A stretch of DNA of 24,000 bases from assembly GCA_965261725.1 (NCBI GenBank), contig CBDHDU010000047.1, positions 88,871 through 112,870 on the forward strand, read 5' to 3'. Below are positions 611 through 10,870 of this stretch, piece by piece. This DNA is from Endozoicomonadaceae bacterium (lineage in GTDB: Bacteria > Pseudomonadota > Gammaproteobacteria > Pseudomonadales > Endozoicomonadaceae). Position 1 is the stretch's first letter. Each line of letters begins with the position of its first letter. Both the position numbers and the translations under genes were made by a program. Below the pieces are notes generated by a model. The model searched no databases. It had not been told where the DNA came from and saw only the letters and a program-made list of their open reading frames with translations.

Positions 611-1844
611 AGCAGGGCAAAAACATGATCATTTTTTGAACAACCCCAATACATTCTCCATGTGGTTTATATCCCAGCCGCAGTTCTTACGCTTGTTCTT
701 GATCCCGCCTTTTACAGTTGTATCCATTTTCAGGAGGTTGTGAGTCACCTGACGAGTAATGGCCAGATTCTCAGCTGTATTATCCTTTCGGGCTCGGCAG
801 CGATCTTCATCAAATGCAACATCCATCACCCAATGAAGCTGATTTTCCACTCGCCAATGCATACGAGTGGCTTGCAGAATCTCTTCAGCTGAGAGCTGTC
901 GGCTGGAGATAAAATAGCGTAGCAGGGTTTCACCTTTATTCTTTTTCCGACAATCTAACTGTACAACGGCAATTGTTTTCGCGTTCCAGCTGGCGGCTAC
1001 CGGAAACTGCTCTATGTCCTGTACAGCCCAGCAGCGGCGATGTTCTCCACGACCATGGGCGTATTCATCTGTTTCTGCAAACCGGGCAGAAGGAGCATCT
1101 GCCGGGTTATCTTGCCAATACTGATCAAACAGGCGAGTCACTTCACCATAGAGTTTTTTCTGGTTGCCTTTTACCGCCAGCAGGTAATCTGCATCTTTCT
1201 TCAGGATGGCATCAGCTATCTTTTTCTGGCACCCCATCGCGTCGATAGTGACCAGGCTACCTGTGAGTTCCAGCAATTTCAGCAGTTCGGGAATCGCCGT
1301 TATTTCATTCGACTTAGAGTCAACCTTATACTGCCCGAGAGACAAGCCGACTTCGGTACACCAGGCATTAACCATATGAATAGCATCTTTGCCCTTGTTC
1401 CAGGCTGAGCCTTTTACTGTCTTACCGTCCAGCGCGACCACTCGACTATCTGACAGCTCGAGGCCTGTCATGACATCTCTCATCCAGGCAGCAAAAATCA
1501 TCCGGAACTCTTCTGGGTCAAGCGATCTGAAAAGACGATTGAAGGTCATGGCACACGGAATGCCGCCGGGAAGGGAGAGATGCTTGCGGAACCACTCTTT
1601 CTGTGTCAGGGCGAACATTCTCATACTATTCCAGTCGTCTGCCCCGCAGAGAATGGCACAGGTTGCCATAAATATGACCTCGGCCAAAACGTGGGTCACT
1701 TTTTTGGGGTCTCGGGAGTCAGTGAAGGTTTCAAAGCGAGATAGCAGAGCGGTATTGATCATGAAAAAGTAGGTATTCTACTCTTTCAGGGGTTAAAAGC
1801 CTTGGCAACAACTGATCAAAAAATGATCATGTTTTTGCCCTGCT
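611..1844 (-). mobile_element. ISAs1-family insertion sequence (1234 bp), apparently intact
   Basis: Perfect 29-bp terminal inverted repeats: AGCAGGGCAAAAACATGATCATTTTTTGA at 611-639 and its exact reverse complement at 1816-1844. They enclose a single 377-aa transposase ORF. I saw no clear target-site duplication. Confidence 0.9.
629..1762 (-). CDS. ISAs1-family (H-repeat-associated type) DDE transposase
   Basis: 377 aa. The N-terminus (FETFTDSRDPKKVTHVLAEVIFMATCAILCGADDWNSM) and the DGK...AIDAMGCQ...HWRVENQLHWVMDVAFDED motifs are characteristic of ISAs1 transposases. The ORF is bounded by the IRs above. Confidence 0.9.
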   Translation of the reverse strand: MINTALLSRFETFTDSRDPKKVTHVLAEVIFMATCAILCGADDWNSMRMFALTQKEWFRKHLSLPGGIPCAMTFNRLFRSLDPEEFRMIFAAWMRDVMTGLELSDSRVVALDGKTVKGSAWNKGKDAIHMVNAWCTEVGLSLGQYKVDSKSNEITAIPELLKLLELTGSLVTIDAMGCQKKIADAILKKDADYLLAVKGNQKKLYGEVTRLFDQYWQDNPADAPSARFAETDEYAHGRGEHRRCWAVQDIEQFPVAASWNAKTIAVVQLDCRKKNKGETLLRYFISSRQLSAEEILQATRMHWRVENQLHWVMDVAFDEDRCRARKDNTAENLAITRQVTHNLLKMDTTVKGGIKNKRKNCGWDINHMENVLGLFKK

Positions 1845-2168
1845 CAAAATGGCGGTACTCAACATCAGGACGAAGATTTAACTACGAATTCAGAAGGTGT
1901 CTCCGATAAAATTGTAGATCCCAAAATTCAGGCTCTTGACAGTCTTGTTGATGAAATATTAAGTCATCATCCGACTCCTGATGAGGTCTGGGAAATTATT
2001 AGGGAAAGTGCAAAACAGAGAGTAGAAGACTGGTGCCTTCCTGCCCCTTTAACTGACTTACTTTGGGTTGCCAGCAGAAACAGGCAAGATGCAGTGCGGT
2101 TACTATTAACCGCATGTACCCGGGGCGCTTTCAAACGACCGTTGCTGGGTTTTGTGAGAATTAATTAA
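1845..2168 (+). pseudogene. Orphan 3' gene remnant (about 107 codons, no start codon), unknown function, abutting the ISAs1 right end
   Basis: The reading frame is open from the IS boundary to TAA at 2166-2168 (QNGGTQHQDEDLTTNSEGVSDKIVDPKIQALDSLVDEILSHHPTPDEVWEIIRESAKQRVEDWCLPAPLTDLLWVASRNRQDAVRLLLTACTRGAFKRPLLGFVRIN). It has no in-frame ATG or GTG near the 5' end. I recognise no family. Confidence 0.3.
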
Positions 2169-2201
2169 CCAGAGTGAAAACTCTTAGACAGAGCCTCAAT
2201 A

Positions 2202-3311
2202 GGCTGAGTTCCCTGAAGTAGTTGAATGAACTACACTTCCCATGCCTTCTACCTTTTAGGGGTTCTTTATGCAATCAGAACTCTTTCGGGACTTTATTAA
2301 TTCCATACCGTCATTAAGCGATGAGCAGTGGAAAATTCTTGACAGGACACTGCTCAATGCCCGAATACCGGATGAGGATATAGTAGAAAAACCTGAATCT
2401 GATGTTATAGAAAGAGAATCATCTGTAAATAATCCACCTGCCACACCTGATCTTGAAGCAAGCATATTATCTCGCTTTGCTGAACATCCGGAATGTCCCG
2501 TGTGTAAAGACCATAATATTCATCGCTGGGGCTTTCAAAGCGGGCGGCAGCGCTACCGCTGCAAGTCATGCAAAGTGACTTTCAATGCATTCAGCAAGAC
2601 CCCTTTGGCAAGGCTTAGATATCCGGAAAAATGGAATAACTACCTCACGGGTATGACTTACTCCATGACACTGCGCTCGGCAGCCAGTGAGTATGATATT
2701 AACCTGAAAACGGCCTTCCGATGGCGCCACTGCTTTCTTGAGGTCATAAATAATGATCAGGCAGAAGAGCTTTGTGGCATCACAGAGCTTGATGAAACTT
2801 TTTTTCGTGAATCATTTAAAGGGCAGAGGAAAGACCTGCCAAGGCCTTCTCGAAAACGCGGAGATGATCCGAACAAAGCTCGGAAAGTCCCGGTAATGGT
2901 AGCCAGAGACCGTGAACGGCACACTGTTGATGGTATTTTGGAAAACGAAAGTGCTAATGAGTTGTGCCGCCATTTAAACGGTCGTATATCGATTGAAGCA
3001 ACGGTCTGTGCGGATGCACACCTTGCACATGAAAAGCTTGCAGAGAAGCTTGGATTTGAGTTTAAGGAACTGGTTACCTCGGCAGGCCAGCATGTTCTGG
3101 AAGGTGTCTATCATATTCAACACGTTAATGCTTACCATAGCCATTTAAAGCGCTGGATTGGTGGTGTGTTTCGGGGAGTGGCTACCCGCTATCTCCCGCA
3201 TTACCTGGCTTGGAAGCGAGATCTGTCAGAAGCCGTTCAGCTAAGCACTGACCGATTCGTCAGAAAAATCATGGAACATTGGTGCTTTCAACTATCTCCG
3301 GGAACTTAGCC
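2202..3311 (+). mobile_element. IS1595-family insertion sequence (1110 bp) with target-site duplication
   Basis: Imperfect 25-bp terminal IRs match at 21/25: GGCTGAGTTCCCTGAAGTAGTTGAA at 2202-2226 versus the reverse complement of 3287-3311, GGCTAAGTTCCCGGAGATAGTTGAA. They are flanked by the direct repeat GCCTCAATA at 2193-2201 and 3312-3320. Confidence 0.85.
2269..3309 (+). CDS. IS1595-family transposase (zinc-ribbon plus ISXO2-like DDE domain)
   Basis: 346 aa. It has a zinc-ribbon motif (CPVCKDHNIHRWGFQSGRQRYRCKSCKVTFNAFSKTPLARLRYPEKW) followed by ELDETFF...VMVARDR...ADAHLAH, as in IS1595/ISXO2-like transposases. Confidence 0.85.
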   Translation: MQSELFRDFINSIPSLSDEQWKILDRTLLNARIPDEDIVEKPESDVIERESSVNNPPATPDLEASILSRFAEHPECPVCKDHNIHRWGFQSGRQRYRCKSCKVTFNAFSKTPLARLRYPEKWNNYLTGMTYSMTLRSAASEYDINLKTAFRWRHCFLEVINNDQAEELCGITELDETFFRESFKGQRKDLPRPSRKRGDDPNKARKVPVMVARDRERHTVDGILENESANELCRHLNGRISIEATVCADAHLAHEKLAEKLGFEFKELVTSAGQHVLEGVYHIQHVNAYHSHLKRWIGGVFRGVATRYLPHYLAWKRDLSEAVQLSTDRFVRKIMEHWCFQLSPGT

Positions 3312-4942
3312 GCCTCAATATCAGTTCCCAGAAGCATTAGTACATTACTAAGTTGAGATTTAAGCTGATCTTTGAGCAGGTCAGCTTCTGCTTTATGAGT
3401 TGAAAAACAGGATAGGGTAAAATGAATTGTATTGCTGACGCTGGGTGCAGAATACCCGATACCAAAGCCATCATCAGTTGTTGGGCAAAAAACAAAATGT
3501 TTGAACATGGGGTGGCTCAGGTTACTGGTTGAAATAGGGCTTTTGTTAATCCATTGAAGGCAGTCGTGTACATCAGAATACTCTGCGCTAAACGAAGCAG
3601 CATCCATGTGAGCTTGTGCCATGTAGAGCGTGCGCTCAAAACCTTCATTATCCTGTAAACTGATTATTTGTCTTTTGTGTGCAAGCAAGGCTGCTATCAG
3701 CAAGTCCTGATCCGGAGCTTTGGCATAAGCTATGGCTTCTTCTGTTACACCTCGGGCACACTCTGTACGCCCGTGATGGAAACGGCTGCTCATATCAACG
3801 CTTTCATAGGTATTCAAAGGAAATCTGCTACCGAAAACCTGATACTGGGCAGCAACCAGCGCTACCTGAAAAACTGCATCAAGGCTGAACAACTTAGCTC
3901 TATTGTTTTTTAACTTTTTTGAAACTTCCAGAAGGTTTTGATGAGTAAACTTTTCGTGTGAAAAATTGCATTGGGGGTAGGTTGAACTTGCTTCAGCATC
4001 TGAGCTTATTGCGGTTAAATCAGTACAGGAAATATGCCACGGACCTTCCAGTGATGGTTGTTTGTGGCTCAATACCTGTTGCTGATCTTCCTGTGTTAGC
4101 TTGCGAACAATTGCCATTCCATCAAAGTGAGAATGGGCAATATTCAGCCCAATGTGTTCTTCACCAATAGCTATCACTTGAATACTTTTATCAAACCAGC
4201 GGTTTTTTCCTTGTCCTAGCTGCATTGTTTCAAATAGTTGAGAACTGCTGTTTTGGATAAGCGAAGGATCGAGAATGACTATGAACAGAGCATGATCCAG
4301 CACCTGAATACACTCTGCAATCTCTGTGCAGTTAAATTTTAAATGCTCTCTCTGTTGTGCTGCTGCGGATCTTTTCAGGTGGGTCACTGCGGGGGTAACC
4401 GGGTTTGAGCAAGGCTTCAAGGACCGTAGTGTTTGTCCAATTGAATGGGCTGATAGAGGAAGGACCTCTTTGATTCCTTTAAGTTTATATACACCATCCG
4501 CTGAGATCACAGCTACATAATCAGAGTGACTTGTATCGATTACGGTATCTTCTGTTTCGCCGGGAAGGCGGGTGTTATACAGGTGCCCCATTTGTTCTTT
4601 ACAAAACTTATGTTGAGTGGGTGGGGCTTCTTCATCAGAGGGCAATAGTTTTAAAATAATATAGCCAAGCTGGTCAAAAAAATCTGACCCTGAGTTTTGC
4701 TCTAGCAGATAGTCTTGGTCAAGTATCAATGTATAGTTAGATGCATATGGGAGTGGGTTTCGGTCTTGCAGATAGCTTTTTTTCCACTGTACTGAAAACT
4801 CTTCACCTGAATCCGTGAGTTCGTGGCCATTGAATTTGCCAAAAAGCCAGTAATAGCAGCATATGTAGGCTAATATTTGCTCATCTAGATTTTCACCATA
4901 TAAGTGAATTTTTGTGGAACTAAAATTTGAGCAATCCGACAC
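3269..4942 (-). CDS. Choline/carnitine O-acyltransferase family protein (eukaryote-type), with N- and C-termini replaced by IS-derived sequence; probably N-terminally truncated
   Basis: 557-aa ORF carrying the family signature blocks. GKNRWFDKSIQVI matches NRW(F/Y)DKS(L/F)Q. NIAHSHFDGMAIV matches the catalytic (E)HSxFDG block of choline acetyltransferase. ISTSNL...DDGFGIGYS matches LSTS...PDGYGVxY. Codons 1-32 lie inside the candidate IS1380-like left end, and the last 13 codons lie inside the IS1595 right IR. Confidence 0.7.
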   Translation of the reverse strand: MSDCSNFSSTKIHLYGENLDEQILAYICCYYWLFGKFNGHELTDSGEEFSVQWKKSYLQDRNPLPYASNYTLILDQDYLLEQNSGSDFFDQLGYIILKLLPSDEEAPPTQHKFCKEQMGHLYNTRLPGETEDTVIDTSHSDYVAVISADGVYKLKGIKEVLPLSAHSIGQTLRSLKPCSNPVTPAVTHLKRSAAAQQREHLKFNCTEIAECIQVLDHALFIVILDPSLIQNSSSQLFETMQLGQGKNRWFDKSIQVIAIGEEHIGLNIAHSHFDGMAIVRKLTQEDQQQVLSHKQPSLEGPWHISCTDLTAISSDAEASSTYPQCNFSHEKFTHQNLLEVSKKLKNNRAKLFSLDAVFQVALVAAQYQVFGSRFPLNTYESVDMSSRFHHGRTECARGVTEEAIAYAKAPDQDLLIAALLAHKRQIISLQDNEGFERTLYMAQAHMDAASFSAEYSDVHDCLQWINKSPISTSNLSHPMFKHFVFCPTTDDGFGIGYSAPSVSNTIHFTLSCFSTHKAEADLLKDQLKSQLSNVLMLLGTDIEAAKFPEIVESTNVP

Positions 4943-6300
4943 GGAATTTTATACTCCGGCAGCGGGTCTGTGCTTTGTCGGTGATGCCCTAAACAAGAAA
5001 ACATCTTTAAAAAAGTCATTGCGTTCTATCAAGAAGCGCCATGGCATCCCTAATATTGATCTGGTTCGAGCTTTTATCGGCCTGTTGGCCTTAGGCAAAA
5101 CTGATTTTGATGCCATTGATAATTATCGCCATGATGATTGGTTCAAGCGCAGCATGGGCATTAAACAAATGCCGTCCGCCAGCCGGCTTCGCCAGCGTTT
5201 TAATGAAGATGCCACCCAACTGATTCCGTTAATTGAAGAAGCGCTTCCCGAACTGTTGTTGGAACTGGGCGCGCCGATCTCTCCGCTTTCAAAAGAACTG
5301 GATCACCTTCAGCATATCCCACTGGATATAGACGTTACTCCGCAAGATAACAGCAGAACCCAAAAAGAAGGTTCTCAGTGGACATACAAACACTTCCATG
5401 GCTTCGCCCCGATTATGTCTTATGTAGGGAAAGAAGGATGGTGCATAGGAGCTGAGCTTCGCCCTGGCTCACAACATTCCCAGAATGATTTTGTACCTTT
5501 CCTGAACACGGTATTGCACAGACTTCGTCGCGTAACCCGGACCTCGGTATTACTGCGACTCGACAGCGGGCATGACGCAGAAGACACTCGCAGAGAGATA
5601 GCGGATCACAGCAATGTTGATCACATAATCAAGCTCAATCCACGCAAGCAATATACCGTTACTGCCTGGCTGCCAACCTTTGAGGAAAAAGGCGTGCAGT
5701 GGGATGAGCTTCGCCCTGGAAAAACCTGTGCGACACTCTCGATCATCCATGAAACCGACTACGGCCAACAACGGCTTATTATCCGTATTATCAAGCGTAC
5801 TACCGACTCGGTTGGTCAGTATTTTTTAGCACCGGACTACGAGCTGGAGGGTTGGTGGACGACACTAGATGAGGCTGAATATAGTGATGATAATGTCATA
5901 TTGCTTTATGAAGATCATGCGACCAGCGAACAGTTTCACAGTGAGTTCAAGACTGACATGGATCTTGAAAGACTGCCTTCAGGAAAATTTGATACCAATG
6001 ATCTTGTAATGTGCCTTGGTGCGGTGGCTTACAACATTTTACGTTACATGGGGCAAACCTGCCTGACCGGCCCTAAATCACCTGTTCGTCACAAAGCGCA
6101 GCGTCGTAGAATTAAGACAGTTATGCAGGAACTGATCTACCAGTCAGCGCGATTATTAGAACGAGGTCGTCAGTTTATTCTGCGTTTTGGTCGTCACAGT
6201 CCCGGATTATCCGCCTTCATGGGGCTCTTTCCTGAAAAACAGCTCTGTTAGCTGATCCTATTCTTTTAACGGTTGAATGGAGAGATGCTGCTTATGCTGG
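4847..6300 (+). mobile_element. IS1380-like insertion sequence (boundaries tentative)
   Basis: Candidate imperfect IRs both start with CC: CCAGTAATAGCAGCAT at 4847-4862 versus the reverse complement of 6285-6300, CCAGCATAAGCAGCAT (13/16). They enclose the transposase ORF. No target duplication was seen, so the boundary call is weak. Confidence 0.4.
4914..6251 (+). CDS. IS1380-family-like DDE transposase
   Basis: 445 aa with a GTG start. The layout resembles IS1380-type transposases: N-terminal xFxxSDxxxTPAAGL, DIDVTP...QKEG...YKHFHGFAPIM...ELRPGSQHS...LRLDSGH, and C-terminal LLYEDHATSEQFHSEFKTDMDLERLPSGKFDTNDLVMCLGAVAYNIL. The family assignment is from memory of the motif order only. Confidence 0.6.
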   Translation: MELKFEQSDTEFYTPAAGLCFVGDALNKKTSLKKSLRSIKKRHGIPNIDLVRAFIGLLALGKTDFDAIDNYRHDDWFKRSMGIKQMPSASRLRQRFNEDATQLIPLIEEALPELLLELGAPISPLSKELDHLQHIPLDIDVTPQDNSRTQKEGSQWTYKHFHGFAPIMSYVGKEGWCIGAELRPGSQHSQNDFVPFLNTVLHRLRRVTRTSVLLRLDSGHDAEDTRREIADHSNVDHIIKLNPRKQYTVTAWLPTFEEKGVQWDELRPGKTCATLSIIHETDYGQQRLIIRIIKRTTDSVGQYFLAPDYELEGWWTTLDEAEYSDDNVILLYEDHATSEQFHSEFKTDMDLERLPSGKFDTNDLVMCLGAVAYNILRYMGQTCLTGPKSPVRHKAQRRRIKTVMQELIYQSARLLERGRQFILRFGRHSPGLSAFMGLFPEKQLC

Positions 6301-6464
6301 CAGGATTTCATTCATATTCAGGGTTGAAATTCCCCAACATCATTTAAATACATGCTGATTTTTTTGACTTTGCTTTACCATTCTCTGGCAAGTTTCAAAA
6401 AAACATAACCCTATTCTGTAGGTTTGAATCCATGGGATGAAAAAGCTTCTCTATAATCAAGAAG

Positions 6465-6827
6465 TCACGGATTCAGGTCTTCAGCAAAGTCGTGTGGCTG
6501 AGGCAACTCCTCCAGAGCTTTGAGAAGAGGCAGAGGAGCAGTCACGGGTAGCTTCTGTAACCGTATCACGGATATATATTGTCTGAATTGTTGCCATGTT
6601 TTTTCAGGAGATAGATAGTAGAAAGGCTTTACATCACAAGGTTCAGAAGTGGGTGAGCAGGATCTTACTGAGATTCCATTTAGAGATTTAAAATGTATAG
6701 GGCACCGTTCTAACGCTGGATAAGTTTTCTGACATTCTACACAGTGATGACTAGCTGATATGGCAGAAGAATATAAGAAATAACTGCTTCCAAGAAAGAA
6801 AGCAAAAAGTAAAATGACTTTTTTCAT
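6465..6827 (-). CDS. Small secreted Cys-rich hypothetical protein
   Basis: The ORF has a clear N-terminal signal peptide (MKKVILLFAFFLGSSYFLYSSAISA/SHH). The ATG at 6827 is preferred over the upstream TTG at 6842. The mature part has 6 Cys, including CVEC. I recognise no family. Confidence 0.45.
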   Translation of the reverse strand: MKKVILLFAFFLGSSYFLYSSAISASHHCVECQKTYPALERCPIHFKSLNGISVRSCSPTSEPCDVKPFYYLSPEKTWQQFRQYISVIRLQKLPVTAPLPLLKALEELPQPHDFAEDLNP

Positions 6828-6936: not shown

Positions 6937-6971
6937 CATCCGGGCTATTTATTCAATTATTAGCCCGGATG
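6937..6971 (-). terminator. Hairpin downstream of leuA (possible terminator)
   Basis: A perfect 10-bp stem, CATCCGGGCT (6937-6946) / AGCCCGGATG (6962-6971), lies 12 nt after the leuA stop. There is no strong U-tract on the minus strand. Confidence 0.35.
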
Positions 6972-6982
6972 CAGGTTTCTTA

Positions 6983-8650
6983 TCAGGCAACACCTTTCAG
7001 AGCATTATGGCTGTAACAATGACTCACGGCTGTCAGAATAGCCTGTAATGCAGCGGCAGAGGTATCTTCATCGCTGGCAATACCGTAATGCATATCTCCG
7101 TCATCAATTTGGGCAGCGATACAAGCCTGAGCTACAGCATCAGTACCACCAGAGGTGGCGTGCATATCGAATTGCTGGATGTCGACCTTGCATTCCAGAG
7201 CATCACATAATGCTTCAATGACACCGGAGCCGTTACCAGTCATAACGGTTGTGACTTCCCCCTGCCCGACGGTAAAGCGTGCGGTGACATTATGATCGTG
7301 GGTGTGCAGGTCATAATCATGCAGTTTCCAGTCCGCCGGTGCATCGACAAAGTGTCGCTGGTACAGCTCATGAATGGTTTTCGGTGAAACTTCAAAACCA
7401 CTTTCTTCGGCGGCTTTTTGCACAACACTTGCAACTTCCGGGTGGAACCATTTAGGCAGTTGGATGCCAAAGTCCCGCTCAAGCACCAGTGCCACACCGC
7501 CTTTACCACTCTGGCTGTTGATACGAACAATCTCTTCGTATTCACGGCCAAGGTCACGGGGGTCAATAGGCAGGTAGGCGACATCCCAGTGCTGCTGTTG
7601 ATTATCGGTGTGATAATTCATTGATTTACGAATCGCATCCTGATGGCTGCCGGAAAAAGCGGTGTAAACCAGTTCGCCAATCCAGGGGTGACGTGCCGAT
7701 ACGGGCAATTCAGTGCAGTGCTCGACGGTTTTAATAAGTTTAGCAACGTTGGAAAAATCCAGCTTCGGATCAATTCCCTGAGAATAAAGATTCATGGCCA
7801 TGGTAATGATGTCCATGTTGCCGGTTCTTTCACCGTTGCCAGCCAGGGTACCTTCTACCCGGTCAGCACCGGCCATAATACCAAGCTCAGCGGCAGCAAC
7901 TGCACAGCCTCGGTCATTATGAGTATGAAGGCTGATGCACACATGCTCACGCTGCTTCAGATGGCGGCAGAACCACTCGATCTGATCAGCAAATACATTG
8001 GGTGTGGACATTTCAACGGTGGAGGGCAGGTTGAGGATTACCTTCTGCCCCTGTTGTGGCTGCCAGATATCAACGACCGCATCACAAACCTCAACTGCGT
8101 AATCCAGTTCCGTACCGGTAAAGCTCTCGGGCGAATATTGGAATGTCCATTCGGTTTCAGGGTATTGGACAGCGTATTCTTTCAGCCATTTGGCACCCTG
8201 CACGGCAATCGCTTTAATGCTTTCCCTACCCTGACGGAAGACCTGTTCCCGCTGCACAGTGGATGTTGAGTTATAAACGTGGACGATGGCTTTGCGGACA
8301 CCAATCAAAGATTCGTAGGTTTTTTGAATCAAATGCTCACGAGCCTGAGTCAGTACCTGAATCGTGACATCCTCAGGGATCATATTCTCATCAACCAGCT
8401 TCCGCAGAAAATCAAAATCCGGCTGCGAAGCAGAAGGAAAGCCCACTTCAATTTCCTTGAAACCGAGCTTGACCAGTAGCTGAAATAAAGCCGTCTTCTG
8501 TTCAACATTCATCGGGTTAACCAGCGCCTGGTTACCATCACGCAGGTCAACACTGCACCAGTGTGGCGCGGTAATGACAGACTGGTTTGGCCAGGTTCGG
8601 TCAGGTAACTGGATGGCTGGAAAAGGCTGGTATTTACGATGGTCGAACAT
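6983..8650 (-). CDS. leuA: 2-isopropylmalate synthase (long, about 555-aa LeuA type)
   Basis: 555 aa. The N-terminus (YQPFPAIQLPDRTWPNQSVITAPHWCSVDLRDGNQAL), the HTHNDRG and GTLAGNGERTGN motifs, and the C-terminal regulatory domain are typical of LeuA. Confidence 0.95.
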   Translation of the reverse strand: MFDHRKYQPFPAIQLPDRTWPNQSVITAPHWCSVDLRDGNQALVNPMNVEQKTALFQLLVKLGFKEIEVGFPSASQPDFDFLRKLVDENMIPEDVTIQVLTQAREHLIQKTYESLIGVRKAIVHVYNSTSTVQREQVFRQGRESIKAIAVQGAKWLKEYAVQYPETEWTFQYSPESFTGTELDYAVEVCDAVVDIWQPQQGQKVILNLPSTVEMSTPNVFADQIEWFCRHLKQREHVCISLHTHNDRGCAVAAAELGIMAGADRVEGTLAGNGERTGNMDIITMAMNLYSQGIDPKLDFSNVAKLIKTVEHCTELPVSARHPWIGELVYTAFSGSHQDAIRKSMNYHTDNQQQHWDVAYLPIDPRDLGREYEEIVRINSQSGKGGVALVLERDFGIQLPKWFHPEVASVVQKAAEESGFEVSPKTIHELYQRHFVDAPADWKLHDYDLHTHDHNVTARFTVGQGEVTTVMTGNGSGVIEALCDALECKVDIQQFDMHATSGGTDAVAQACIAAQIDDGDMHYGIASDEDTSAAALQAILTAVSHCYSHNALKGVA

Positions 8651-9142: not shown

Positions 9143-9625
9143 ATGAAAACAAAACACCACCTTGATCGCTTTGATATCAGGATATTACACGAGCTGCAGC
9201 GGGACGGATCGTTGTCAAATCAGGAGTTGGCTGAGCGGGTAGGGCTAACCGCAGCACCTTGTTCCCGTCGGGTAAAAACGCTTGAAGACAATGGTGTAAT
9301 TGCAGAACGGGTGGTGCGTGTTGACCATCGCTCAGTGAATCTGAACCTGATGGCTTTGCTACATATCAGCATGGACAAACATATTCCTGACCGTTTTGAA
9401 GCTTTCGAAAAAGCGATCAGCTCCTTTCCGGAAGTGCTGGAGTGTTACCTGATTACCGGACACGATGCTGACTACCAGCTTAAGATTGCGGTACCCGATA
9501 TGGATGCCTATCACGATTTTTTGCTGGGAAGAATTACCCGACTGAAAGGAGTAACCGGAGTGAAGTCGAGTTTTATGATGCGGAAAATTGTTGAGACGAC
9601 GGCATTGCCGCTAAGTTATATCTGA
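9143..9625 (+). CDS. Lrp/AsnC-family transcriptional regulator
   Basis: 160 aa. It has an HTH (LDRFDIRILHELQRDGSLSNQELAERVGLTAAPCSRRVKTLEDNGVI) followed by a RAM/AsnC_trans_reg domain. It is divergent from leuA. Confidence 0.9.
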   Translation: MKTKHHLDRFDIRILHELQRDGSLSNQELAERVGLTAAPCSRRVKTLEDNGVIAERVVRVDHRSVNLNLMALLHISMDKHIPDRFEAFEKAISSFPEVLECYLITGHDADYQLKIAVPDMDAYHDFLLGRITRLKGVTGVKSSFMMRKIVETTALPLSYI

Positions 9626-9652
9626 TTATTACGCGTATAGAGTCAAAGGGCT

Positions 9653-10870
9653 TCAGGAAAGATTGCTGTATTTTTCTTTCCACTCACTTTCCCAGGCGAG
9701 AATCTTATCGGCAGGCATGGGCTTGCCTACGAAGAATCCCTGGGCTACATCGCACTCAAGGTCTTTAAGAAGCTGCCAGTCAGCTTCCGACTCAAGTCCT
9801 TCAGCCACAGTCTTGAGCTTCAGTTTACGAGCCAGCTCGACATTGGCTTCAACAATGGCGCGCCGGGTGGGATCTTCAATCGCGTTCTTAACAAAGGATT
9901 GGTCGATTTTTAGCTCCGAAAAGGGAATACGGTTCAGTTGCTGCATACTCGAATAGCCGGTTCCGAAATCATCAATTGAAAGGGTAAATCCTTTCATCTT
10001 CAGACGTGCCAGCGTAGACAGGCAATAGGCAACATTCTCCATGACCGCGCTTTCAGTAATTTCCAGTGTCAGCAAGGCAGGGCCGACGCCGGCATCACCG
10101 ATCATCTCTATCAGCTGTTCCGGTAAGCGGGTATTGCCCAGCATCGAAGGGGAGATATTAACGGAGGTGTTAATAACCCGGCCATCATTCTCCCAGGCTT
10201 TAATCTGTGCGGCGGCTTGCCGGAGCAGAGACTCGGTCATCTGATCCATCAAACCAAAGTTTTCAATTTCACCAATAAACTGACCTGGAAAAACCATACC
10301 GTGTTCAGGGTGCTGCCAGCGTGCAAGGGCTTCACAGGAAACCCACTGACCATTGCTGAGTAGTACTTTGGGCTGAAACCATGGAACGAACTGACCATCC
10401 GCAATGGCTTGTTCCAGAATCTCTTTATTAAGCTCCAGCTTTGATCCCGGCTGAATCGGGTTATTGGTCTCTCCCTTTATAAAGAGTTGAAAAAGGGCGT
10501 CGACTTTTTCCGGGTTAACCGGCTTCTCCAGTGTACCCAGCACATTCATGCCATGTTCTGCGGCCATATCTTCTACAGTGCGGATCAGTTCAGGCTCCAT
10601 AGCGCTGGCAACAATAATGGCAGAAGCCAGCTTTTTCTCGGCAACATGACGAATAAATTCGATGCCGTCCATGCCGGGCATATCGAGATCGCAGATAGTT
10701 ATGTCAATGGGTTCGGGGCTGGCTGCGATCTTGTCCAGTGCTTCCTGACCGTCTTCAGCTTCCAGAACAGATGAAATGCCAAGACCACTAACTACCTTGA
10801 CGGCAACCATGCGCTGAAACTGATGGTCTTCTACCACCATAATGCGCAGTGCGTCATAGGCATGACTCAT
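9653..10870 (-). CDS. Response-regulator receiver plus EAL domain protein (c-di-GMP phosphodiesterase, RocR/PvrR-like architecture)
   Basis: 405 aa. REC domain: IMVVEDHQFQR...DITICDLDMPGMDGIEF. EAL domain: CEALARWQHPEHGMVFPGQFI, SVNISP, LEITES, SIDDFGTGYSS, LKIDQSFV, AEGLES and QGFF motifs. Confidence 0.9.
   Translation of the reverse strand: MSHAYDALRIMVVEDHQFQRMVAVKVVSGLGISSVLEAEDGQEALDKIAASPEPIDITICDLDMPGMDGIEFIRHVAEKKLASAIIVASAMEPELIRTVEDMAAEHGMNVLGTLEKPVNPEKVDALFQLFIKGETNNPIQPGSKLELNKEILEQAIADGQFVPWFQPKVLLSNGQWVSCEALARWQHPEHGMVFPGQFIGEIENFGLMDQMTESLLRQAAAQIKAWENDGRVINTSVNISPSMLGNTRLPEQLIEMIGDAGVGPALLTLEITESAVMENVAYCLSTLARLKMKGFTLSIDDFGTGYSSMQQLNRIPFSELKIDQSFVKNAIEDPTRRAIVEANVELARKLKLKTVAEGLESEADWQLLKDLECDVAQGFFVGKPMPADKILAWESEWKEKYSNLS

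Follow-up and report, generated by a model that had tools for sequence, protein, structure and literature searches.

The structurally characterized enzymes CrAT (1nm8, 1ndb, 2h3p), CPT2 (2h4t, 2deb) and ChAT (2fy3) belong to a single Pfam family, Carn_acyltransf (PF00755), and share a two-domain fold. Here, we describe a gene with the same family membership and fold in a 24,000 nt stretch of DNA from an Endozoicomonadaceae bacterium (GenBank assembly GCA_965261725.1, contig CBDHDU010000047.1, positions 88,871 to 112,870), hereafter the window. Its product differs from CrAT and CPT2 in that Ala precedes the catalytic His, Phe takes the place of CrAT Met564 (Gly in CPT2) and identity is only 20–30 %, and from all three enzymes in carrying a putative signal peptide and a CxxC…CPxH motif in place of the LPxLPVP block. 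The gene is also broken. The 557-codon ORF found at 3269–4942 on the minus strand is very probably the central fragment of a recently inactivated acyltransferase gene that two insertion sequences (ISs) have cut into three. For damage of this kind, the closest described case is ‘Ca. E. cretensis’, in which IS expansion has left approximately 200 insertionally disrupted coding sequences (PMC6007542). There, as here, multi-copy identical ISs disrupt genes with clean duplications; the species and the IS inventory are different, and in the window it is one gene that has been hit twice, by two IS families.

The ORF opens with a GTG at 4942 and ends with a stop at 3269–3271. An earlier note on this DNA, made from the sequence alone, had assigned it to the carnitine/choline acyltransferases on the strength of three signature blocks, and had placed it between two ISs. 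The family assignment is borne out by a PF00755 match of 203.9 bits (gathering cut-off 22.3, E 5.6e-60), which covers protein residues 52–528 and profile positions 64–573, and the translation contains all three blocks (NRWFDKS, IAHSHFDG and STS…DGFGIGY). Both flanking elements were likewise recognized, one as a member of the IS1380 family and the other of the IS1595 family. Approximately 46 N-terminal and 13 C-terminal codons of the ORF are IS sequence, and the gene to which the remainder belongs is laid out as follows.

6480–6827, minus strand: piece A, codons 1–116 of the acyltransferase gene.
6478–6483: upstream copy of the TCTTCA direct repeat, the target-site duplication flanking the IS1380-family element.
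4806–6477, plus strand: IS1380-family element (1672 bp) whose ends read CCTGAATCCGTGA…/…TCACGGATTCAGG; its transposase ORF (445 aa) spans 4914–6251.
4806–4942, minus strand: IS-derived 5′ extension of the 557-codon ORF, namely the GTG start and approximately 46 codons from the left end of the IS1380-family element.
4800–4805: downstream copy of the TCTTCA direct repeat.
3312–4804, minus strand: piece B, 497 codons with nearly the whole Carn_acyltransf domain.
3312–3320: 9 bp target-site duplication GCCTCAATA, adjoining the right end of the IS1595-family element.
2202–3311, plus strand: IS1595-family element (1110 bp) bearing the inverted repeats GGCTGAGTTCCC/GGCTAAGTTCCC; its transposase ORF spans 2269–3309.
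2193–2201: the other copy of GCCTCAATA, adjoining the left end of the IS1595-family element.
2165–2192, minus strand: piece C, the true 3′ end of the gene, with the stop TAA at 2165–2167.

A transposase equivalog (NCBIfam transpos_IS1380, 316.8 bits against a cut-off of 180; Pfam DDE_Tnp_1_4), a single ORF in approximately 1.7 kb, terminal inverted repeats and a short target duplication place the first element in the IS1380 family. Searching the genome of the same bacterium with 4700–6600 returned at least 12 full-length copies at approximately 100 % identity, together with approximately 30 fragments, and the ends of the element (4806 and 6477) were fixed by more than 12 other genomic copies. 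Matching 5 bp flanks were present at seven of the nine other copies checked, and the repeat at the window site is 6 bp long. Because the boundary is set by other copies, approximately 46 codons of the ORF (4942 to 4806), and not the 32 first counted, can be assigned to the IS.

The second element has the N-terminal Zn ribbon and ISXO2-like DDE domain of the IS1595 family (Pfam PF12760 and PF12762; NCBIfam transpos_IS1595, 168.1 bits against a cut-off of 75), 12 nt inverted repeats and a target duplication. Approximately 30 full copies at approximately 100 % identity are present in the genome, and 9 bp duplications flank all five of the others that were checked (six of six with the window copy). 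The 557-codon ORF owes its final 13 codons and its stop to the right end of the IS1595-family element, whose insertion severed the last eight codons of the gene. These lie in piece C, which after the duplicated bases encodes …(A)LSKSFHSG, and the C-terminus so reconstructed resembles that of P0003, an intact metagenomic orthologue (…LLGSDVEELSRRFNSQ).

Read from the flanks only, the empty-site joins give …PQPHDFAEEFSVQWKKSYLQDR… for the first insertion and …LLGTDIEALSKSFHSG, followed directly by the stop, for the second. Pieces A, B and C sum to 1866 nt, that is 621 codons and a stop, in one open frame with no further stop or frameshift inside any of them. We propose that the ancestral gene would have run on the minus strand from an ATG at 6827 to the TAA at 2165 and would have encoded a very divergent PF00755 member bearing a Sec signal and a Cys motif. 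Two elements that are expanding actively in this Endozoicomonadaceae genome would then have inserted, the IS1380-family element after codon 116 and the IS1595-family element eight codons before the stop, each making its usual target-site duplication. The 557-codon ORF would owe its existence to reading frames that, by chance, are open through the two IS ends.

The suspicion that the gene may be decaying was, therefore, well founded: an IS has inserted at two places, each time leaving its target duplication intact, and the gene is now a pseudogene with no intact coding sequence. The inactivation is recent, because no additional stop or frameshift has arisen in the three pieces and, across the genome, the copies of each IS are essentially identical. 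With neither signal peptide nor Cys motif, and without the initial helices of the fold, the 557-codon ORF is most probably non-functional, and the fragment would not be expressed as a working enzyme.

The earlier note had also held that roughly the first 80 residues were absent. The N-terminus is displaced across the IS1380-family element, not lost: piece A (6827 to 6480) stands directly beyond the element, 1.67 kb upstream of piece B and in the same frame. It has no Pfam match on its own, and aligns to residues 1–109 of the intact 617 aa P0003 at 41 % identity (E 2e-20). The translation begins in the manner of a signal peptide (MKK, a hydrophobic run, then AISA|S) and continues with the motifs C-x2-C-x-K-x-Y…C-P-x-H and a P-x3-W-x2-F-x2-Y helix. 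An alignment of the N-termini of three species has 24 invariant columns, which include C-x2-C-x-K-x-Y, C-P-x-H-x-K, P-C and P-x3-W-x2-F-x2-Y. Only this last remnant is conserved in the region of the LPxLPVP block. The canonical block is missing from the intact orthologues as well, whose Pfam match starts only at profile position 42–43; its absence thus characterizes the group and is not, as had been supposed, a result of the truncation.

A search of 1.84 billion representative proteins returned only three clusters at E ≤1e-30, namely the window ORF itself, P0003 (62 % identity) and P0004 (47 %); every other match had at most approximately 30 % identity. P0003 is encoded on a metagenome contig (L033), P0004 comes from Endozoicomonadaceae bacterium StTr2, and a further protein, P0005, comes from Spongorhabdus nitratireducens. 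All three resemble the window gene in identity (45–62 %), in the AHSH motif, in their position after leuA and in the N-terminal module, and differ from it in being intact; P0004 and P0005 carry the NCBI label ‘choline/carnitine O-acyltransferase’. A same-genus genome (G003) also has an intact orthologue directly after leuA (L019:1153–3006, plus strand; 617 aa from the first ATG), identical in sequence to the protein that NCBI names from Spongorhabdus nitratireducens, with the same signal-peptide-like start and Cys motif. The orthologues score 226 and 217 bits against PF00755. Synteny with the window is anchored by a gene immediately upstream.

6983–8650, minus strand: leuA (2-isopropylmalate synthase; Pfam HMGL-like, IPMS_D2 and LeuA_dimer), immediately 5′ of the acyltransferase gene in each of the three species; L019 and L033 share this order.

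On the P0003 contig, the gene order matches that of the window (EAL regulator, Lrp, leuA, acyltransferase). Since the gene lies directly downstream of leuA with the same N-terminal module in three species, it was inherited vertically within the genus. The earlier note had named a broad, vertically inherited bacterial clade with this same N-terminus as the finding that would speak against truncation and horizontal transfer; the shared N-terminus and the vertical inheritance are both seen here, in a clade that is tiny and not broad.

The NCBI models of P0004 and P0005 (522 aa) start at an internal Met. An open frame continues for 95 codons upstream of that Met; its translation begins like a signal peptide and contains the conserved CxxC…CPxH motif. 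Conservation of the N-terminal module in the three-species alignment supports the long start; the real product of the orthologues is, thus, probably 617 aa, and the public annotation mis-started. Identity to the window LeuA is 83 % in G003 and 90 % on the P0003 contig. The corresponding values for the acyltransferase core are 47 and 62 %, and for its N-terminus 30 and 41 %; judged by these identities, the acyltransferase gene is evolving much faster than its neighbour.

Several observations concern the surroundings of the gene. A 17 nt inverted repeat with 1 nt spacing (6937–6971) lies just after the leuA stop and is probably the leuA terminator, which would leave approximately 110 bp for a promoter belonging to the acyltransferase gene. 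In the window (9625–9653), only 28 bp separate the EAL response regulator from Lrp, and a 757 aa gene without a Pfam match (L033:947–3220, plus strand) stands between the two on the P0003 contig. Downstream synteny has been lost, in that the nitroreductase-like gene which follows the G003 orthologue was not found anywhere in the window. Approximately 320 bp (1845–2165) separate the acyltransferase stop from a third element.

611–1844, minus strand: ISAs1-family element with 32 nt inverted repeats (NCBIfam transpos_ISAs1, 378.6 bits), a downstream neighbour and not part of the gene.

Piece B retains the residues expected of the family. In phmmer alignments to solved structures, AHSHFDG falls on the catalytic EHSWGDG of rat CPT2 and on EHAAAEG of human and mouse CrAT, and the catalytic-His motif H-x3-(D/E)-G is invariant in the alignment of the window protein with its homologues. 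The residue before the His is Ala in the window gene, P0003, P0004, P0005 and the G003 ORF; it is Glu in P0006, P0007, P0009, CPT2, CrAT and a second PF00755 lineage of the Endozoicomonadaceae, which we term group B. For CPT2 and CrAT, the earlier note was thus right about this position. Ungapped blocks against CrAT and CPT2 comprise the catalytic His with Asp at +4, TYES, GRTE, the Arg of GFERTL (…FDRHL… in CrAT), ISTS and the basic residues before SLDA; STS…DGFGIGY also lies in this piece. From the CrAT structures, we take TYES, the Thr of GRTE, the Arg of (D/E)R(H/T)L and STS to be substrate-contact residues, with TYES and GRTE contacting carnitine and STS serving as the oxyanion motif. The Arg presumably binds the carnitine carboxylate, its counterpart in ChAT being, we assume, Asn. 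Phe occupies the CrAT Met564 position (a numbering confirmed by the mutant titles of 1t7n, 1t7q and 2h3w), which we take to be the acyl gate.

Structural work on CrAT associates a retained Arg with carnitine over choline, and a bulky gate residue with short acyl chains. Because the Arg of the DRHL block is kept, carnitine rather than choline is suggested as the substrate of the intact protein, and the bulky Phe at the gate suggests short acyl chains; the intact protein is, thus, predicted to be a short-chain carnitine-type acyltransferase. From its N-terminus it would also be exported. The fold was assessed on an AlphaFold2 model of P0003, not of the window fragment, built from a 13-sequence alignment (mean predicted local distance difference test score, pLDDT, 61; predicted template-modelling score, pTM, 0.66). 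The model has the two-domain CrAT/CAT-like fold, and the top 28 Foldseek matches were all ChAT, CrAT, CrOT or CPT2 (E 1e-20 to 1e-23, TM-score 0.55–0.61).

Some points weigh against the interpretation set out so far. The P0003 model is only moderate and its N-terminal 139 residues are unreliable; the signal-peptide call is a reading of n, h and c regions and an AxA site in the sequences of three orthologues; and export of a CoA-dependent enzyme is biochemically puzzling. For the fragment itself, a GGAG stands 11 nt before the GTG at 4942, so that some translation of the chimera is possible. Our search for a described precedent of an exported CoA-dependent CrAT-like enzyme found none; a search of the literature on Endozoicomonas carnitine acyltransferase, Spongorhabdus and bacterial PF00755 found nothing relevant; and no NCBIfam model matches the acyltransferase.

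On a wider proposal, the intact gene would define a small, fast-evolving, Sec-exported subfamily of carnitine-type short-chain acyltransferases, recognizable by the signal peptide, CxxC…CPxH, the Ala before the His and the Phe gate, and found only in three lineages of Spongorhabdus-like Endozoicomonadaceae. Its members would work beyond the bacterial cytoplasm, where pools of carnitine/acylcarnitine or choline from the host might be among their targets, and the window strain would have just lost its copy. As a whole we consider this proposal doubtful.

PF00755 is sporadic in bacteria within our sample, as the earlier note had stated for bacteria at large: it matches in 6 of 399 evenly sampled genomes of the Gammaproteobacteria, the window genome not counted, and in none of 14 control genomes, and it is enriched in the host-associated Endozoicomonadaceae, where 12 of 62 other genomes have a match. 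This distribution favours the host origin raised in the earlier note, under which the gene would have come horizontally from an animal or a protist and diverged thereafter. We placed the group in a tree of 53 sequences (IQ-TREE, LG+C20+F+G4 by posterior mean site frequency, PMSF). Named eukaryotes in the eukaryote-containing clade were Caenorhabditis, Orbilia, Fonticula, Pterocystis and Cavostelium, the remaining rows being labelled by clade membership; named bacterial representatives near the group were Amphritea, Sporosarcina and Vagococcus. Rows labelled as eukaryotic form a clade (support 100/98) that is sister to a bacterial group (bact2) with an Amphritea metagenome-assembled genome (100/99), and the window group lies outside both the eukaryote clade and the eukaryote+bact2 clade. 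It shows no affinity to metazoan sequences, and its best non-self matches are bacterial-type proteins of approximately 575 aa, only marginally better than protist ones.

In approximately unbiased (AU) tests, constraining the group with the eukaryotes cost 14.2 log-likelihood units (p 0.056), which is no formal rejection, and constraining it with group B, the Endozoicomonadaceae paralogues, cost 1.3 (p 0.19). Duplication long ago inside the bacterial family, with fast divergence afterwards, fits at least as well as transfer from a host. The three members share a stem of 2.1 substitutions per site, attached at an unresolved node among bacterial groups; any placement of the group is weak, and on so long a branch neither origin is secure. 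Given also the conserved chromosomal locus of the gene in three species, we regard acquisition from a eukaryote as improbable, and the proposal of a host-derived or horizontally transferred gene as unsupported.

All PF00755 matches in the other Endozoicomonadaceae genomes, except that in G003, belong to group B (L020–L027, P0019, P0036 and P0095). This lineage comes from the same bacterial family and the same Pfam family as the window gene, to which it could be sister. It differs in having canonical full-length Pfam matches (E ~1e-120), an EH(S/T)xAD motif and a PLPLP entry motif, with 26–29 % identity to the window gene. The open frames of the group B genes (L020–L027 and L029) are 640–735 aa long, with long polar N-terminal extensions, rich in Lys, Arg, Ser and Pro and lacking a signal peptide, before the PLPLP motif. 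The window genome has no second intact copy of the acyltransferase, and its sole other PF00755 gene is a broken paralogue of 28 % identity. That gene, a group B member on contig 39 (L018:1465–4083, minus strand; 61 % identical to P0019), is interrupted between residues ~175 and 201 by an IS1595-family element of approximately 0.9 kb, itself frameshifted, and carries a further frameshift near residue 112.

For the fragment at 3269–4942, the earlier note had offered a trimmed functional variant as the alternative to decay: a 557-codon chimera, transcribed from the IS1380 end, cytoplasmic, N-terminally shortened and active. The frame is indeed open from the GTG at 4942, downstream of the GGAG, all catalytic-core motifs are intact, and outward promoters have been reported on IS elements in Endozoicomonas (PMC6007542). 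However, the reading frame that crosses the IS end is part of the IS, and at the left end of the IS1380-family element there is no promoter-like site on the minus strand that points outward. The promoter scan gave nine sites against 8.5 expected, none reading from the IS into piece B, and is weak negative evidence only. The chimera also lacks Pfam profile positions 1–63 and the helices modelled at P0003 residues 75–130, besides the signal peptide and the Cys motif. That the displaced N-terminal piece survives undamaged upstream speaks for a very recent accident and not a remodelled gene. An active trimmed enzyme is, in our judgement, very improbable. Least credible of all is an assembly artefact, in which repeat misassembly would have placed IS copies in an intact gene: both IS types are multi-copy and approximately 100 % identical, the usual cause of misjoins, but each insertion is flanked by a duplication of the length typical for the same IS elsewhere, which a misjoin would not create, and many IS copies are internal to the 230 kb contig.

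Insertional inactivation of a once intact gene thus remains our preferred explanation of the 557-codon ORF. The near-identical copies of both elements indicate recent bursts of IS activity in this genome, several contigs of which (C29, C37, C11 and C35) carry clusters of nested IS fragments.

Overall, an apparent N-terminally trimmed eukaryote-type enzyme and an apparent orphan Cys-rich secreted protein prove to be parts of a single gene. As a feature of the window, this is a pseudogene of an ordinary kind, made by ISs in an Endozoicomonadaceae genome rich in them, and such events are commonplace in Endozoicomonas. What is worth keeping is the lineage that it reveals, a syntenic and rapidly diverging branch of PF00755 with a putative export signal, unusual for the carnitine/choline acyltransferase family, and a Cys/His module that public annotations omit. 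If export is true, the role of a CoA-dependent carnitine acyltransferase fold outside the cytoplasm of an animal symbiont would become a concrete question.

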